NCBI GenBank assembly: GCA_964291675.2
Contig: OZ219865.1
Location: 480,001 to 544,000, forward strand
Reading direction: 5' to 3'
Length of the DNA: 64,000 nucleotides
DNA from: Alphaproteobacteria bacterium
GTDB lineage: Bacteria > Pseudomonadota > Alphaproteobacteria > MPNO01
The position numbers and the translations under genes are program-made. Positions 34,621 through 52,619 of this stretch are shown one piece after another (within the stretch, counting starts at the first letter, position 1; the number at the start of each line of letters is the position of its first letter). The notes under the pieces are model-generated. The model was not told the DNA's origin and ran no database searches. It worked only from the letters and a program-made list of their open reading frames with translations.

Positions 34621-35607
34621 TCAGCCGCCCGCGATGCGGTCGGCCAGGGTGCCAACCGCGGTCGCGAACAGGTTGGAACGGTTCCACCTGAGGATCGCGC
34701 GGAAATTGTCGTAGACCACGTAGGGCGGCCCGTTCGCCCCGCCCGGCAGCAGGATCGAGGAGCGCAGATTGCGCCGCGGCAGGTCGCTGCCGTCCGGCCG
34801 GCGCACGCCGAGCCGCTGCCAGTCGTTGAGCCCCTTGCGGGTCTTGAGCCCGGCCAGCGACCGGTCGAAGCCTTCCGGCAGCCGCACCCGGCGGCCCCAG
34901 GTCTGGTCGCCGCGCCAGCCCACCTTGCTGAGATAGTTGGCGCTCGAGGCGAAGATGTCGGCATGGGTGCCCCAGATGTCGCGCCGGCCGTCGCCGTCGT
35001 AATCCACCGCGTAGCGCAGGAAAGACGACGGCATGAACTGGTTCTGCCCCATCGCGCCGGCCCAGGAGCCCATCATCGCCCGGGCCGCGATATGGCCCTG
35101 GTCGACGATGGTGAGCGCGTTGAACAGCTCCTTGCGGAAATAGGCCGAACGCCGCCCGTCGAAGGCCAGCGAGGCGAGCGCCTGGATGACCGGGAAGCCG
35201 CCGAGATGGCGCCCGAAATCGGTCTCGATCCCCCACAGCGCGACCAGGAAGCGGGGCTGCACCCTGTACCTCGCCGAGACCTCGCGCAGCAGGTCCCGGT
35301 GCCGGGCGAGCCGCGCCCTGCCCTTGTCGACCCGCGCCTTCGACACCACCCGCGCGAGGTACCGGTCGAGCGTGAGCTTGAACTCCGGCTGCCTGCGGTC
35401 GAGCTCGACCACCCGCGCGATCGGGCGGATGTCCGACAGCGCGGAGACGATCGTCGCCTCCTTGAGGCCGCGCTCGCGCGCCTCCTTGCGAACGCCTTCG
35501 AGCCAGGCGTCGAAACCGCTCGCGGCGGCGGGCGCGCCGGCGAGCGCGAAGGCGGCGACAAGAACGCCGCAGGCGAGCTTCGGCCGCCGGTGGGGTCGAT
35601 CTGTCAT
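34621..35607 (-). CDS. mltB: Lytic murein transglycosylase B family
   Basis: Signal peptide, LDRRQPEF, WGIETDFG, GSWAGAMGQ.QFMP, DYDGDGRRDIW. Confidence 0.92.
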   Translation of the reverse strand: MTDRPHRRPKLACGVLVAAFALAGAPAAASGFDAWLEGVRKEARERGLKEATIVSALSDIRPIARVVELDRRQPEFKLTLDRYLARVVSKARVDKGRARLARHRDLLREVSARYRVQPRFLVALWGIETDFGRHLGGFPVIQALASLAFDGRRSAYFRKELFNALTIVDQGHIAARAMMGSWAGAMGQNQFMPSSFLRYAVDYDGDGRRDIWGTHADIFASSANYLSKVGWRGDQTWGRRVRLPEGFDRSLAGLKTRKGLNDWQRLGVRRPDGSDLPRRNLRSSILLPGGANGPPYVVYDNFRAILRWNRSNLFATAVGTLADRIAGG

Positions 35608-35745
35608 CGGCTCCTCTCCGCATCCTCGACCGGGCCGGGAGCTCGTTAGTGCCACAGCTTCGGACGACTCGGCAACGAAGATCGCCCGGCTCAGGCCCAG
35701 AGCCAGTCCAGCTCGGAGAAGGCGAGCTTGCGGTCGACATTCGCG

Positions 35746-35783
35746 GATCGTGTCCCGCCGCGCGGTGCAAGGGCCCGGCGCCG
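35746..35783 (-). mobile_element. Isolated IS256 right-end scar
   Basis: Reverse complement closely matches 51741-51778, the right end of the intact IS256. Confidence 0.7.
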
Positions 35784-35790
35784 CTCGCGC

Positions 35791-37122
35791 TCAGGACGAC
35801 CTCGCCGAGCTCTTCCTTCGACCTGAGTTCGGCCGCGGCTCGCCGCCCGGGCCGGGAACGAATTGCCGTTCCTGCAGACGGGACAACAGGCGCTCGCGAA
35901 GCCGAACGCTGTGCTCGGCATCGCCCGATTCCTCCCCGCGCGGCAGCGCGTCCGGATGCCGGGCGGGATCGTCCGCCGTTGCGAGTTCGTGCAGGTTCTC
36001 GGCGATCATGCCCGCCGCCGCGTCGATCAGCTCGTCGTTGTACCGCCCCGGCAGCAGGTTCCGGCGGTCTTCGTCGGTCTTCCACGGCGCGTTCAGGATG
36101 CCGGCGACCGGGCTCGCGGTCCCGGTCGGGAAGAACGCCCAGAACCGTCCGGGCTCGTCCAGACGGTCCAGCGGGACGGCCCAGCGGATCGGCACCTCGC
36201 CGCCCTCGTCGTGCGGCGGCCGGTCGCTGCGCGCTTCGGCGGAAAGGCGATGGGCGGTGTCGAACCGCCGCCAGCGGGAGAACCCTTCCCCGGTATCGAG
36301 ACGAAGCTCACCCCGCCACTTCTCCAGAACGAACTCGCGGGCGGCCTCCACCTTGTCGAGGGTAAGGTAACGGACGCCGTCGACCAGCAGGAGGAACTCC
36401 GGCGGGAAGCTCGCAATCTGCGCTTCGAGGCTCTTGTGGGCGCCGGGCTTCAGAGGCAGGCGGACGATGTTCGTCGCCCAGCTCATGAATTCGCGCAACT
36501 CCTCGTCCGTGTCCCTCGCCTCGTGGGGGTCGATGGGCTCGGGCAAACTCAGCACCGGGTAGCGCTCGGCGGGCGCGATTTCCGCTATGCGCTCGGCCGA
36601 GCGGGCTCCGTCGCAACGGAACGAGACCGGGCGGCTGTAAAACTCGGGCGCATCGCTCACGCGCAGGACGGACTTGAAACCGGGGCCGAACCTGCCGATC
36701 GCGCCGGTGTTTCGCTTGCTCGACATGCGGGAGAACATGAGCCCGTCGATACCACGCTCGTCGATTGGGTTTCCGTTGTCGGCGCAGTAGAGGAAGCCTT
36801 CCGTCAAGCGAATCAGGATGCTCTTGCCCTTCGGCGCCCCGCGCAAGGCGTCCGCGCTGTTCTGCGCGAGCTCGAACAGCTGGCGATGGGCATACCCGCC
36901 ATGGGCCGTGTCGTGCTCTTCGTTTGCGTCCCGGGCGATGAGCTCGGGCTGCGCGCGGTATGCGTCGAGGGTCTTTTCGGCTGCTTCGGCAACGAACCTG
37001 GCGAGCGGACCCCCGGAGCCACTCCAGTCGGGTTGCCCGCCGGAAGTCGGAAAGCGTGACTTGGCATTCGCGCGGAAGAACTTGCCGCGCTCGCTATTCG
37101 AGAAATCGTATTCTTGCTTCAT
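35791..37122 (-). CDS. Antitoxin-like N-terminal peptide fused to sacsin-type GHKL ATPase domain; probably 3'-truncated
   Basis: MKQEYDFSNSERGKFFR N-terminus; LFELAQNSADA, ADNGNP, IGRFGPGFKSV GHKL boxes; FFPT..LNAPWKTDEDRR; ends beside an IS256 end. Confidence 0.72.
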   Translation of the reverse strand: MKQEYDFSNSERGKFFRANAKSRFPTSGGQPDWSGSGGPLARFVAEAAEKTLDAYRAQPELIARDANEEHDTAHGGYAHRQLFELAQNSADALRGAPKGKSILIRLTEGFLYCADNGNPIDERGIDGLMFSRMSSKRNTGAIGRFGPGFKSVLRVSDAPEFYSRPVSFRCDGARSAERIAEIAPAERYPVLSLPEPIDPHEARDTDEELREFMSWATNIVRLPLKPGAHKSLEAQIASFPPEFLLLVDGVRYLTLDKVEAAREFVLEKWRGELRLDTGEGFSRWRRFDTAHRLSAEARSDRPPHDEGGEVPIRWAVPLDRLDEPGRFWAFFPTGTASPVAGILNAPWKTDEDRRNLLPGRYNDELIDAAAGMIAENLHELATADDPARHPDALPRGEESGDAEHSVRLRERLLSRLQERQFVPGPGGEPRPNSGRRKSSARSS

Positions 37123-37418
37123 TCTCCAGACTCGTAGTGGCGCCGCTCCTCAGGGGTTGCGGAACGGGCCGAAATGAGCCGCACCGAGTCCTCGCCCTCG
37201 TCGGTCACCCGATCCGTATGGCATACGACCAGCAGCCTGCCGTCCGGGGTGCAGCCCATGGTTATCCAGCGCTGTTCGAACTGGCTGTGTTCTTCATCGG
37301 CGATCGTCCGCCTGAACGGATCCCAAAAGACTGTCCGCGCATCCTCGAATTCGATCCCGTGCTTGCGGCGGTTGTCCGCCGCCTTGGCGGGGTCCCACTC
37401 GAACTCGAACTCGAACAT
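37119..37418 (-). CDS. brnT: BrnT family ribonuclease toxin
   Basis: FEWDPAKA..N..KHGIEFEDA, HS..E.RW..MG, RLISARSAT..ERRHY. Confidence 0.92.
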   Translation of the reverse strand: MFEFEFEWDPAKAADNRRKHGIEFEDARTVFWDPFRRTIADEEHSQFEQRWITMGCTPDGRLLVVCHTDRVTDEGEDSVRLISARSATPEERRHYESGE

Positions 37419-37635
37419 GCGACGCCGCTCCTGCCCCGCCCGGATCGGCCCATGAGTCCGTGGCCGGGGCGATCAACCGGGCTGAATACACGCGGACTCG
37501 AAGGAAACCCCGGTATCGGCATTGCGGGATGTGGCGTTCGGTGGCCCCTGTCGCATATCCGAGCCTAGCACAGTTCCATGTGACTTTGATATGACGTCGC
37601 CCCCGGCGCTGGCCAGCGCCATCGTCCGGCTCTAT

Positions 37636-39516
37636 ATGAGCGCGCATGCGCAACATGCAATCCGACCGGACGTGACGGAGGCGGCGCGCAGCGGGGCGGG
37701 CCGCAAGCTGGAGGACGGGTTCGAGTGGCGCGCGCTGGCCGCGCTGCTGCCCTATCTCTGGCCGCGCGGCGAGCTCGAGATCAAGCTGCGGGTGGCGGCG
37801 GCGCTTGCTTTGCTGGCGCTCGCCAAGCTCGCCACGGTCTACATACCGGTGCTCTACAAGCAGGCCGTCGACATTCTCGGCGGCGAGGCCGGGGCGGCGG
37901 TGGCGGTGCCGGTCGGCGTGATCGTCGGCTACGGGATCGCCCGGCTGCTGGCGACCGCCTTCGGCGAGCTGCGCGACGCGGTGTTCGCCAAGGTCGGCCA
38001 GCGCGCGATCCGCCGGGTCGCGCTCGCCACCTTCCGCCATCTGCACGGGCTCGCGCTCCGCTTCCATCTGGAGCGCCAGACCGGCGGGCTGTCGCGCGCC
38101 ATCGAGCGCGGCACCAAGGCGATCGACTTCCTGCTGCGCTTCGCCCTGTTCCACATCATCCCGACCCTGCTCGAGCTCGCCATGGTCTGCGGCATATTGT
38201 GGACCCTGTTCAATGTCTGGTTCGCGCTGGTGACCCTGGTCACCATCGTCGGCTTCGTCGCCTACACGATGGTCGTCACCGAGTGGCGCCTGAAGTACCG
38301 AAGGCGCATGAACGAGACCGACCAGGAGGCGAACACGCGGGCGATCGACAGCCTGCTCAACTACGAGACCGTCAAGTATTTCGGCAACGAGGCCTACGAG
38401 GCGCGCCGCTTCGATGCCGCGCTCAGGCGCTACGAGCGGGCGGCGGTGACCAGCAACGCCTCGCTGTCGCTGCTCAATATCGGCCAGGCGGTGATCGTCG
38501 GCTCCGGGCTCGCCGCGATCATGCTCATGGCGGGCTACGGCGTCGCCGGCGGCACCATGACCGTGGGCGATTTCGTCATGGTCAACACCTATTTGATCCA
38601 GCTCTATCTGCCGCTCAACTATCTCGGCTTCGTCTACCGCGAGATCAAGCAGTCGCTGACCGACATGGAGGCGATGTTCTACCTGCTCGGCGTCGCGCCC
38701 GAGGTCGAGGACGCGCCCGGCGCGAAGCCGCTCGCCGACGGCCCGGGCGAGATCGTCTTCGCCGGGGTCTCGTTCGCCTACGACCCCCGGCGCCGCATCC
38801 TGCACGACGTGAGCTTCGCCGTGCCGGCCGGGCGCCGCACGGCGATCGTCGGCCCGACCGGCGCCGGCAAGTCGACGCTGTCGCGCCTGCTCTACCGGTT
38901 CTACGACGCGACCGAGGGCGCGATCGCCATCGACGGCCAGGACATCCGCAGCGTCACCCAGGCCAGCGTCCGCGCGGCGATCGGGATCGTCCCGCAGGAC
39001 ACCGTGCTGTTCAACGACACCGTCTACTACAACATCGCCTACGGGCGGCCGGACGCGACGCCGACGGACGTCGAGGCGGCGGCGCGGAGCGCGGCGATCC
39101 ACGACCAGATCATGGCGATGCCGGACGGCTACCAGACCGTGGTCGGCGAGCGCGGCCTAAAACTGTCGGGCGGCGAGAAGCAGCGCGTGGCGATCGCGCG
39201 GACCATCCTCAAGCGGCCCCGCATCCTGATGTTCGACGAGGCCACCTCGGCGCTCGATACCCGCACCGAGCGCGAGATCCAGGTCGCGCTGAAGGAGATC
39301 TCGCGCAACCGCACGACGCTGGTGATCGCGCACCGGCTGTCCACCGTGGTCGACGCCGACGAGATCCTGGTGCTGGAGCACGGCCGTATCGTCGAGCGCG
39401 GCACCCACGCGGCATTGCTGGCGCAACACGGCACCTACGCGCAGATGTGGGCGCGCCAGCAGGAGGCGGGCGAGGCCGCGCCCGCGCCGGACGGCGGGGC
39501 GCGGCTGCCGGCGTGA
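37636..39516 (+). CDS. Atm1/HMT1-family ABC exporter (fused TMD-NBD)
   Basis: FHLERQTGGLSRAIERG, DSLLNYETVKYF, GPTGAGKST, LSGGEKQR, DEATSALD; start uncertain. Confidence 0.93.
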   Translation: MSAHAQHAIRPDVTEAARSGAGRKLEDGFEWRALAALLPYLWPRGELEIKLRVAAALALLALAKLATVYIPVLYKQAVDILGGEAGAAVAVPVGVIVGYGIARLLATAFGELRDAVFAKVGQRAIRRVALATFRHLHGLALRFHLERQTGGLSRAIERGTKAIDFLLRFALFHIIPTLLELAMVCGILWTLFNVWFALVTLVTIVGFVAYTMVVTEWRLKYRRRMNETDQEANTRAIDSLLNYETVKYFGNEAYEARRFDAALRRYERAAVTSNASLSLLNIGQAVIVGSGLAAIMLMAGYGVAGGTMTVGDFVMVNTYLIQLYLPLNYLGFVYREIKQSLTDMEAMFYLLGVAPEVEDAPGAKPLADGPGEIVFAGVSFAYDPRRRILHDVSFAVPAGRRTAIVGPTGAGKSTLSRLLYRFYDATEGAIAIDGQDIRSVTQASVRAAIGIVPQDTVLFNDTVYYNIAYGRPDATPTDVEAAARSAAIHDQIMAMPDGYQTVVGERGLKLSGGEKQRVAIARTILKRPRILMFDEATSALDTRTEREIQVALKEISRNRTTLVIAHRLSTVVDADEILVLEHGRIVERGTHAALLAQHGTYAQMWARQQEAGEAAPAPDGGARLPA

Positions 39517-50060: not shown

Positions 50061-50328
50061 GCACTCGATCGAGAGGGTCCGAATCGGTATTGATCGACTT
50101 TTCGGCCACGATTGTGCAGAACAGATGGCAGATCCGGTTCGGGCGTCCTCCGCTGTCGGGCAGGCCTGCGGGTCCACCACACGGCCGCACGGAGAGGCGA
50201 TGTTCCCATGAGCAACGGCACGCACGACGGAGCTGCACCGGGGACGCCAGTGTCCGCCCCGCCCGAGCCGTTCCAGCGGCTGAAGAGCCTCTTGCGGGAG
50301 ATGTTCCAGCTCGACCGCGGCGATCTCG

Positions 50329-51778
50329 GGTCGTGTCCCCAGACGTGGTGTAGGAGCTCTGGCCTTGGTTTGTAGCTGTGGGTAAGCAGCGCGCCGCCGC
50401 GACCGCCGCGAGTCTGGCGGCGGCGGGCTGCTTATCCACAGCGGAGGCCATCGCGGTTCCGGTTTAGGGTTGGGTCGTGCAACGCCAACCCGAACCTGAG
50501 GAGGAACCGCGATGACCGACGACATGATGGCCCTGCGCGGGCTTTTGGAGAAGAGTTCCGACGCCGATCTGCTGCGCGAGATGATCGGCTTCTCGGCCGA
50601 GCGTCTGATGGCGCTGGAGGTGGAAGGGCTGACCGGCGCCGCCCATGGCGAGCGCACGCCGGAGCGGATCACGCAGCGCAACGGCTACCGCGAGCGGGCC
50701 TGGGAGACCCGCGCCGGCACGGTGGCGCTGAGGATCCCGAAGCTCAGGACGGGGAGCTACTTCCCCGGCTTCCTGGAACCGCGCCGGATGGCGGAGAAGG
50801 CACTCACGGCGGTGATCCAGGAGGCCTACATCCAGGGCGTGTCGACGCGCTCGGTCGACGACCTGGTGCAGGCGATGGGCATGTCGGGCATCTCCAAGAG
50901 CCAGGTGTCCAGGCTGTGCGCCGAGATCGACGACAAGATCGAGAGCTTCCTCGACCGGCCGCTGGAGGGCGAGTGGCCCTATCTGTGGCTGGATGCGACC
51001 TATATCAAGATGCGCGAGATCGGGCGCATCGTCCCGGTCGCGGTGACCGTCGCGGTGGCGGTCAACGACCAGGGCCGGCGCGAGGTGCTCGGCATGGCGA
51101 TCGGCCACTCCGAGGCCGAGACCTTCTGGACCGCCTTCCTGCGCGCGCTGACCGGCCGCGGGCTCAAGGGCGTCAAGCTGGTGATCTCCGACGACCACAA
51201 GGGGTTGAAGGCCGCCGCGACCCGCATCCTCGGCGCCACCTGGCAGCGCTGCCGCATCCACTTCATGCGCAACCTGCTGGCCCATGCCGGCCGTCAGGGA
51301 AGGCGCGTCGTGTCTGCCTTCGTCGCCACCGCCTTCGCCCAGGACGACGCCCAGGCCGCGAGCGCCCAGTGGCGCCTGGTCGCCGACCAGCTCAGGCCCA
51401 AGGCGCCCAAGCTCGCCACCCTCATGGACGACGCCGAGCACGACGTCCTCGCCTACATGACCTTCCCCAGGGAGCACCGAACCAAGCTCCACTCGACCAA
51501 CCCCATCGAGCGGGTCCATGCCGAGATCAAGCGCCGAACCAACGTCGTCGGCATCTTCCCCAACGAAGACGCCGTCACCCGCCTGGTCGGCGCCATCCTG
51601 CTCGAGCAGAACGACGAGTGGGCCGTCGCAAGGAGATACATGACACTGGAATCCATCGCTCAGACCAGCGACAATCTCACCGTCAAGCCGCCCGCCGTGG
51701 CAGCCTGACCCTACCGGCCCAACACGCCGGATACCGCGATCGGCGCCGGGCTCTTACACCACGTGGCGGGACACGATC
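50329..51778 (+). mobile_element. IS256-family insertion sequence (1450 bp)
   Basis: 24-bp imperfect IRs (20/24) GGTCGTGTCCCCAGACGTGGTGTA / GATCGTGTCCCGCCACGTGGTGTA; 8-bp target duplication CGATCTCG at 50321-50328 and 51779-51786. Confidence 0.96.
50512..51708 (+). CDS. IS256-family DDE transposase
   Basis: [40 protein letters not shown]. Confidence 0.96.
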
Positions 51779-52619
51779 CGATCTCGATTTCGGCCTCTAC
51801 CGGATCATGGCCATGAAGGCGGGCGAGATCGAGGCGTTTCTCGATCGCGACCTGCTGCCCCAGGTGAAGGAGGTCCTGGCGGGAGTCGCGGACGAGGATC
51901 GGATCGCGCTGGAAGAAGCGCTCGCGGAAGCGCGGCAGCGGGCGCGGCAGTTGGGAGTCGACCCCGAGGAGACACCGAAGGTCCGGAAGCTTCGAGCCAA
52001 ATTGGCGGCGCCGAAGGCCGACGCGGACGCCGAGGCCGCCGTCTACGGCCATCTCGCCACCTTCTTCGCCCGCTACTACCGCGAGGGCGACTTCATGTCG
52101 CTGCGGCGCTATGCGGGCGGCGGGCGGACGACCTATCTGATCCCCTACGACGGCGAGGAAGTGAAGCTGCACTGGGCCAACGCCGACCAGTACTACATCA
52201 AGACGACCGAGAGCTACGCTTCCTACGCCTTCGCCGCCGGCGAGGGCGAGGCCGCGCGGCGCGTCCGATTGGAGATCGCGGCCGCCGACAACGAGAAGGA
52301 CAACGTCAAGGCGGCCGAAGGCAAGCAGCGCCGCTTCGTGCTCGCGCAAGGCGGCGACGCCATCGCCCACGACGGTGCCGATCTGGTCGTCCGCTTCGAG
52401 CACAGGCCGCTCACGGACGCCGAGAAGAAGACGTGGCCCGGCAACGGCGCGCGGCAGCAGGAACGGATCGACGAGGCGTCTGCGGCGCGGGTGCTCGGTA
52501 CGCTCGATGGGGACTGGCGGGCGCTGCTGGCCGCACCGGCGCCGACCGAGACCGATCCCGAACGCACGCTGCTGGCAAAGCACATCGCGCGCTACACGGC
52601 GAAGAACAGCTTCGACTAC

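Follow-up and report, generated by a model that had tools for sequence, protein, structure and literature searches.

We describe a candidate toxin-defense cassette in a 64,000-nucleotide stretch of an alphaproteobacterial genome (contig OZ219865.1, positions 480,001 to 544,000; hereafter "the window"), in which brnT, a gene for a BrnT-family RNase toxin, overlaps a gene for a Tiamat-like ATPase whose first 25 residues resemble those of the small antitoxins that accompany BrnT. The reading we favor, with a probability of roughly 0.6, is that this locus is a decayed form of a mobile two-gene cassette, composed of brnT and a Tiamat-like protein with a BrnA-type N-terminal module (N-module) that would hold BrnT inactive, so that sensing by the large protein, or its loss, would free the RNase. 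The window locus is a dead remnant, and its value is as a pointer to the intact cassettes that we find in two relatives (genomes G015 and G016).

A brnT gene coupled to a Tiamat-like gene

The toxin gene (37119..37418, minus strand) encodes a 99-aa protein of the BrnT family (RelE/BECR fold), which matches PF04365 over the whole profile (positions 1-77 of 77; E 2.2e-26; 92.4 bits against a cut-off of 34.5) as well as the 94-aa PDB chain 7vd7_A, a "toxin" (E 2.4e-18), and has all nine of the columns that are invariant in an alignment of 25 BrnT sequences. We predict it to be a BrnT-family ribonuclease toxin, apparently intact. The TGA of brnT (37119-37121) overlaps the ATG (37120-37122) of a 443-aa open reading frame (ORF; 35791..37122, minus strand), an ATGA coupling for which the original prediction, made from the sequence of the window, had given coordinates, strand, and ORFs as we find them; the order, with the toxin first and a coupled gene downstream, is that of BrnT operons. 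By sequence reading, a GGAG sits only 1 nt before this ATG, and translation of the ORF is therefore probably coupled to that of brnT. The DNA upstream of brnT (37419..37601, minus strand), which falls within the island described below, is the presumed promoter region, where a scan for the sigma-70 consensus found no site, so that the promoter is not located. The RNA found consists of one 167-nt contig (36156-36322, 2 differences) from one metatranscriptomic run, and does not show transcription.

What remains in the 443-aa ORF, which begins MKQEYDFSNSERGKFFRANAK, is the 5' part of a Tiamat-like gene. Residues 80-162 (36637..36885, minus strand) form a GHL/sacsin-type ATP-binding core, with a match above the cut-off to the profile NF047352 for the ATP-binding-like domain at the N-terminus of sacsin (E 1.7e-17). 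The conserved ELxQNxxDA, DxG, and GxFGxGFKS stretches, which we take to be the Bergerat-fold ATP-binding boxes, are present, and the invariant ATPase columns correspond to E84, Q87, N88, D91, D115, G117, G143, G146, and G148. A longer region, residues 41-423 (35854..37002, minus strand), is matched by the PADLOC profile PDLC03964 of the Tiamat protein TmtA (E 7.6e-48, profile positions 10-400 of 1538) and by eight further TmtA profiles. The original prediction had the ORF continue as a sacsin-like ATPase of GHKL type; the continuation and the sacsin-type domain are as it said, and the protein is better named Tiamat-like (GHL/sacsin-type) than generically sacsin-type GHKL. The Tiamat-like sequence starts after residue ~30, and the first ~30 residues of the ORF fall outside every Tiamat profile.

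A second sacsin/Tiamat-like gene of the same genome lies outside the window (G000:C2:150766-157323; L004, L005, and L007), with a 1847-aa frame that matches TmtA positions 40-358 and an adjoining 2289-aa frame that matches the C-terminal part of the profile twice.

The first 25 residues are related to BrnT-linked antitoxins

Codons 1-25 of the ORF (37048..37122, minus strand) encode the module MKxEYDFSxxERGKFFRxxAxxxxP, which we propose to be a BrnT-binding leash. No Pfam family matches the first 40-50 residues at E ≤ 10, and the RHH (ribbon-helix-helix), BrnA_antitoxin, and CopG_antitoxin families match neither these residues nor the 443-aa ORF as a whole. We scanned metagenome contigs with the back-translated pattern M-[K/R-like]-x-E-Y-D-F-S-x3-R-G-[K/R-like]-F and obtained at least 119 stretches, with 80 loci for which DNA was at hand and to which the following ORF and BrnT counts refer. 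Most of the ORFs that start with the pattern are complete and short (73/80; 22-98 aa, mostly 66), the remaining 7 run off their contig, and none of the 80 is Tiamat-like. A profile built from seven BrnTs detects a BrnT within 500 nt upstream in 61 of the 80 loci (52 of the 69 with at least 300 nt of upstream DNA and 9 of the 11 with less), and degraded brnT fragments are found in at least 5 of the 17 BrnT-negative loci that have enough upstream DNA. When four of the small antitoxin ORFs were scanned, one passed the Pfam cut-off for BrnA_antitoxin (E 1.2e-10) and two matched CopG_antitoxin below the cut-off (E 4.7e-4 and 3.7e-5), with weak matches to ribbon-helix-helix families over residues ~26-57. 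The module is joined to at least three kinds of C-terminal domain, always behind brnT, which makes it the constant partner of BrnT.

A profile built from 54 of these antitoxins, searched against 153 Tiamat-like proteins, matched exactly the 13 that bear the peptide, with positions 1-25 falling on residues 1-25 and scores of 20-43 bits. The window ORF scores 36 bits over its residues 1-25 and is the sole significant match in a six-frame translation of its whole genome (E 3.2e-8; 82,031 segments), in agreement with the original prediction that its start resembles the N-termini of BrnT-linked antitoxins. Over positions 17-26, which are independent of the search pattern, 7 of the 13 fused proteins, that of the window included, have scores that no more than 8 of 177,010 null windows reach; for the window peptide, the fraction of null windows that equal or exceed its score is 4e-5. 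Importantly, the residues that are best conserved in the small antitoxins (Y5, F7, S8, G13, F15, and P25) are invariant in 12 aligned fused proteins, as is M1, in proteins that are overall only 47-68% identical to that of the window. These comparisons show the peptide to be homologous to the N-module of antitoxins encoded behind brnT.

A tblastn search of plasmids with residues 1-31 gave no match, and a search by word index for shorter proteins that have residues 1-40 in common with the ORF gave one candidate, with none scored. In three alphaproteobacterial brnT loci (L175, L176, and L158), a related motif (DWSGAKRGLFYRP or DFTKLDRGKFY) occurs inside longer BrnA-type antitoxins, immediately ahead of the ribbon-helix-helix strand, which suggests that the module is widespread inside BrnA proteins. 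On two viral contigs (L028 and L029), a MxxEYDFSxGxRGxF start heads ORFs of 72 and 116 aa with no BrnT nearby, and the module may thus have other partners or uses.

Intact cassettes in related genomes

The fusion is found beyond this assembly. Close homologues that align from residue 1 are present in 3 of 40 relatives: in G015 (66% identity over residues 1-430 of the window ORF; 1520-aa ORF) and G016 (62%; 1503-aa ORF), both from the same family as the window genome, and in G040 (67%), where the alignment ends at residue 279. In G015 and G016, the end of brnT forms the identical ATGA overlap with the next gene, which begins MKQEYDFSAGERGRFF or MKAEYNFSQGERGKFL. A brnT followed by a peptide-bearing Tiamat-like gene is thus found in 4 of 78 genomes of the order, the window genome included, and a search of the whole order added none; brnT stands upstream in all four fused loci with known context. 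The four loci lie in four different neighborhoods and have only these two genes in common.

We further searched 1.84 billion representative proteins, 2443 of which match at E ≤ 0.001, and found the peptide on 10 of the best 150 clusters (P0001-P0004, P0010, P0018, P0023, P0063, P0093, and P0105). The antitoxin profile has no match in the other 140 at E ≤ 10, and most of these begin near query residue 30, at a DWxGPxG motif. Among 400 other genomes of the class, sampled for comparison, there are two Tiamat-like homologues (G350 and G088), which align only from residue 32-37, lack the peptide, and have no BrnT in the 4.2-kb loci around their 5' parts (~1.5 kb upstream covered). Taken together, the brnT-peptide-ATPase layout is shown to be a conserved natural architecture and no accident of one assembly.

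The original prediction had also expected intact versions to continue into helicase or nuclease domains, and it is a helicase that we find. The G015 and G016 proteins combine the sacsin-type ATPase with ResIII/DEAD (ResIII E 9e-27 and 1.7e-24) and Helicase_C (E 8.5e-14 and 7.7e-12) domains at residues ~1090-1470, in which they end, and no C-terminal PD-(D/E)xK nuclease is found in these full-length relatives. Their matches to TmtA profiles reach no further than profile positions ~415-633, and Pfam gives no DUF3684 match in either, in a region that falls in the part missing from the window copy.

The G015 cassette (L019, G015:C1:1279500-1288500) lies, by ORF reading, between DnaK-like and DnaJ-like genes, and the G016 context is different. 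This insertion site is unusual in being inside a normally tight chaperone gene pair. The ORFs of at least 300 aa at L019 comprise only the DnaJ-like gene, the 1520-aa gene, brnT, and the DnaK-like gene, with no separate brnA, although small ORFs were not screened. The G040 locus (L010/L021, G040:C1:4612000-4624000) is a second decayed copy, with the Tiamat-like gene cut at about residue 279 and brnT split over two frames; just upstream of it, ORF reading shows transposase-fragment-like ORFs.

Many Tiamat-like representatives have other N-terminal additions. In nine of them (P0008, P0013, P0014, P0021, P0024, P0031, P0040, P0076, and P0135), a lysine/arginine-rich extension of 30-60 residues stands ahead of DWxGPxG, in place of the peptide, and P0050, P0068, and P0071 (and P0120 and P0026) have additions of ~105-290 residues.

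Origin of the linked BrnT

We built a FastTree phylogeny of BrnT from 43 sequences and 97 columns, from which we excluded the locus of one unpublished genome and any sequence that had an internal stop or an E above 1e-14. The three BrnTs of the Tiamat-like loci make up one clade (support 0.96), which sits within a set of 17 BrnTs that are each paired with a small antitoxin of the EYDFS type (0.82). The BrnTs that come from alphaproteobacterial genomes and have antitoxins of other types are all placed outside. Three further brnT loci in the genome of the window, each with an ordinary BrnA gene, encode BrnTs that lie outside the clade, and the EYDFS-type N-terminus is missing from their BrnAs. 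The tree shows the linked BrnT to derive from the same lineage as the BrnTs of EYDFS-type pairs. In the simplest history, a Tiamat-like gene took the place of the ribbon-helix-helix part in a brnA of the EYDFS type.

A search of genome contigs with BrnT gave one locus, in a Terriglobia metagenome-assembled genome, where the partner is an unrelated CopG-type antitoxin. The family is markedly expanded in another alphaproteobacterial genome (G177, 2.1 Mb), with 20 BrnT matches.

The window copy is a deletion remnant

DNA homology to the G015 and G016 genes runs from 37413 to 35853 and resumes at 35757-35694, in the last 62-64 nt of the gene, leaving a gap of ~3.2 kb in the window copy, which corresponds roughly to codons 424-1487 in G015. 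The last ~17 codons (NVDRKLAFSELDWLWA) and the stop survive as a 3' remnant, identified by blastn, at 35691..35744 (minus strand), out of frame with the 443-aa ORF; this remnant is 75-81% identical over 62-64 nt to the 3' ends of the G015 and G016 genes, and its C-terminal motif is also found in G015, G016, and P0003. Between the two remnants lie the terminal 45 nt of an IS256-family insertion sequence (IS) element (35745..35789, minus strand; right end, inverted), identical at 40 of 45 nt to an intact element. The outer IS tip at 35745 abuts the 3' remnant, and the 443-aa ORF stops one base past the inner IS edge. The original prediction was accordingly right that an IS256 end is present and that it lies at the break, and missed that the gene has lost an internal stretch and retains its last codons, instead of being simply cut short there.

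The intact element of 1452 nt lies in the window at 50328-51779 (transposase PF00872, E 8.7e-120), and the genome holds seven further full-length, near-identical copies (99.7-99.9%), one 87% copy, and several fragments elsewhere. At the break itself, no transposase gene or second IS end is found, nor any further match in 35790-35900, so that only the 45 nt remain; the nearest transposase is 13 kb away. A plain internal deletion without an IS was ruled out when a short-word blast search found the solo IS end. A separately assembled contig from a DNA run, possibly the genome's own sample, spans 35708-36093, deletion junction included, with 0 differences. The window copy is an internal-deletion remnant, nonfunctional as a defense gene, and the likely sequence of events is an IS insertion near the 3' end followed by a deletion from inside the IS into the gene.

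Both genes lie on an island of 1.9 kb (35698..37601, no strand assigned), located between a lytic-transglycosylase-like gene (34621-35655, by ORF reading) and an ABC-transporter-like gene (37522-39516). The island is missing in all five congeners compared at this site, where the flanks are adjacent (13-nt overlap to 117-nt gap), and the Tiamat-like gene is present in none of 11 congeners searched. The island is bordered by imperfect 13-nt direct repeats (11/13 identical; 35685-35697 and 37602-37614), for which congener G010 has a single 13-nt counterpart at its empty site; the left one provides the stop codon of the Tiamat-like gene. The GC content of the island (63-70%) is only slightly below that of its flanks. 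The cassette moves as two genes only, with no mobility genes of its own.

Proposed mechanism and alternative explanations

In the mechanism that we propose, a Tiamat-like protein, consisting of an ATPase, a central region, and an SF2 helicase, would have exchanged its own N-terminus for that of a BrnA-type antitoxin (the first 25 residues). We take this N-module to be the BrnT-binding part of BrnA because it is constant while the DNA-binding C-terminus varies; if it binds BrnT, then the large protein would hold the toxin inactive and so act as its antitoxin, and would probably also be the sensor. In the intact system, the sensing of infection by the ATPase-helicase, or the inactivation or degradation of this protein, would free the RNase, which would stop translation and lead to abortive infection or dormancy. 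In the window, the IS256-family insertion near the 3' end and the ensuing ~3.2-kb deletion would have destroyed the sensor and helicase, and the surviving product would retain the leash and the ATPase domain next to a still intact brnT; this is as toxin addiction would predict, under which the 5' end could not be lost while the toxin works. Only tentatively, and with less confidence than in the cassette itself, we extend this to a portable leash: an ATPase-helicase would have captured the 25-residue BrnT-binding module of BrnA, making the RNase toxin a releasable effector and the toxin-antitoxin pair the output arm of a single-protein immune sensor.

Several observations weigh against holding and release of BrnT by the large protein. 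That the N-module binds the toxin we infer from modularity, and the structure search gave only the toxin chain, with no solved BrnT-BrnA complex found. The match of the peptide to the antitoxin profile at positions 1-16 is partly by construction, because the antitoxins were chosen with a peptide-derived pattern, and at positions 17-26 the remaining 6 of 13 fused proteins score poorly in the ungapped test. Genomic context is known only for 4 fused loci, all from one order, and the three pattern matches on viral contigs are on small ORFs, none with BrnT. Neutralization of BrnT in trans by the BrnAs of the three other brnT loci could also occur. Finally, only the nuclease-type Tiamat of B. cereus has been tested against phage, and not the helicase type, according to the available text of the Tiamat preprint (bioRxiv 10.64898/2026.09.30.754977). 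Co-folding of BrnT (25-row alignment) with residues 1-45 (12-row alignment), run without controls, gave values of 0.13 and 0.19 against a mark of 0.32, which speak neither for nor against binding.

The main rival, which we consider unlikely, is that the arrangement serves addiction only: the BrnA module would neutralize BrnT without any link to signaling, the toxin would make a costly defense cassette hard to lose, and the Tiamat-like defense would work via its own helicase and partners. This fits the bare two-gene organization without mobility genes, and the retention of the 5' end beside brnT in both decayed copies (window and G040), as well as the split brnT of G040, which is expected once selection on the pair lapses. 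Yet only two decayed copies are known and their 5' retention fits either explanation, and a separate small brnA would stabilize the cassette equally well. Furthermore, putting a 1500-aa protein in place of the DNA-binding domain removes the autoregulation attributed to BrnA (PMC11980606, in the portion available) and makes the release of the toxin depend on the state of this protein.

More doubtful still is the explanation that the peptide is a relic, in which brnA received the insertion of a Tiamat-like gene and its 25 codons persist only as a start and coupling signal, with BrnT inactive or held in trans. The genome does have three other brnT-brnA loci that could supply an antitoxin, and the GGAG so close to the ATG makes translation of the large gene probably dependent on the ATGA coupling. 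Against this, M1, Y5, F7, S8, G13, F15, and P25 have stayed invariant at 47-68% overall identity and are the same residues as in the small antitoxins, a constraint at the amino-acid level and not that of a nucleotide signal, which makes a relic unlikely. The other BrnAs of the genome are moreover without this N-terminus, their BrnTs lie outside the clade of the linked ones, and the window BrnT retains all of its invariant residues. As for an artefact, in which brnA and an unrelated ATPase gene were brought together in this one assembly by misassembly or a chance deletion, the locus did undergo a deletion involving an IS end, but at the far (3') end of the gene, and with the brnT-peptide-ATPase junction in three other genomes, the peptide fusion in 10 clusters, and separately assembled DNA-run contigs covering the stretch with 0 differences, we give this idea hardly any credence.

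Comparison with known systems

BrnT/BrnA is reportedly a type II toxin-antitoxin system with its prototype in Brucella abortus, as described by Heaton et al. in 2012. The locus described here has the same toxin-first order and tightly coupled downstream gene, whose product opens with the N-module of BrnT-partnered antitoxins, but this product lacks the ribbon-helix-helix DNA-binding domain by which BrnA is defined, and an ATPase-helicase of ~1500 aa (443 aa in the remnant) stands in its stead. Because this domain is replaced, autoregulation by the antitoxin is not expected. A 2025 mBio survey of RelE/ParE toxins lists PF_BrnT with the toxin/antitoxin gene order and, in its accessible part, describes BrnT-BrnA fusions and the C-terminal ribbon-helix-helix domain of BrnA (PMC11980606); that part contains no mention of Tiamat, sacsin, or GHKL. 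The single-gene fusions (PMC11980606, Table 2, as far as accessible) likewise rearrange the brnTA module by fusion. There, however, toxin is joined to antitoxin with the ribbon-helix-helix or helix-turn-helix domain kept, whereas here the toxin and the antitoxin module are on separate chains, with the module on a defense-type ATPase.

According to the portion of the Tiamat preprint available (bioRxiv 10.64898/2026.09.30.754977, October 2026), strict Tiamat consists of an Hsp90-like ATPase, a DUF3684 core, and a PD-(D/E)xK nuclease, Tiamat-like Type III-A carries an SF2 helicase instead of the nuclease, and relatives of Tiamat reach plant NO VEIN and human sacsin. The proteins described here have the same N-terminal GHL/sacsin-type ATPase, and those of G015 and G016 share the SF2 helicase end, which is deleted in the window copy; since the helicase stands where the nuclease would, we do not file them as strict Tiamat. 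The neighbors that the same source gives for Tiamat are a helicase, a methyltransferase, a RelE-fused helicase, and a PIN-helicase, and the N-terminal fusions are of S1/LOTUS type. Neither BrnT nor an antitoxin-derived N-terminus is mentioned in its main text, to which supplements may add, and the words "toxin" and "brnt" are absent from the NO VEIN preprint. Our literature searches returned no description of a layout of brnT with a Tiamat-like gene, nor of Tiamat with BrnT, and the literature naming both sacsin and antitoxin concerns, by the titles listed, HEPN systems and other topics. The combination of a BrnTA module with a Tiamat-like Type III-A protein thus appears to be new.

Tiamat is poorly understood, and the peptide with its cognate toxin gives a simple read-out of the holding and release of BrnT. 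If the proposed mechanism is true, then it would offer a first way into the signaling of helicase-type Tiamat-like proteins, would mean that as few as 25 residues can make up the toxin-binding part of a type II antitoxin and be transferred to an unrelated protein, and would bear on the recruitment of toxin-antitoxin pairs into immune systems. Arrangements of a comparable kind are PARIS, in which the AriA ATPase holds the AriB toxin, and PrrC, which the EcoprrI restriction enzyme holds. Neither is homologous to the system described here, and here the holder would be a short peptide from a type II antitoxin, with a release step that is hypothetical; the proposed logic is nonetheless the same, in that a large defense ATPase or enzyme keeps a nuclease latent until a phage factor acts.

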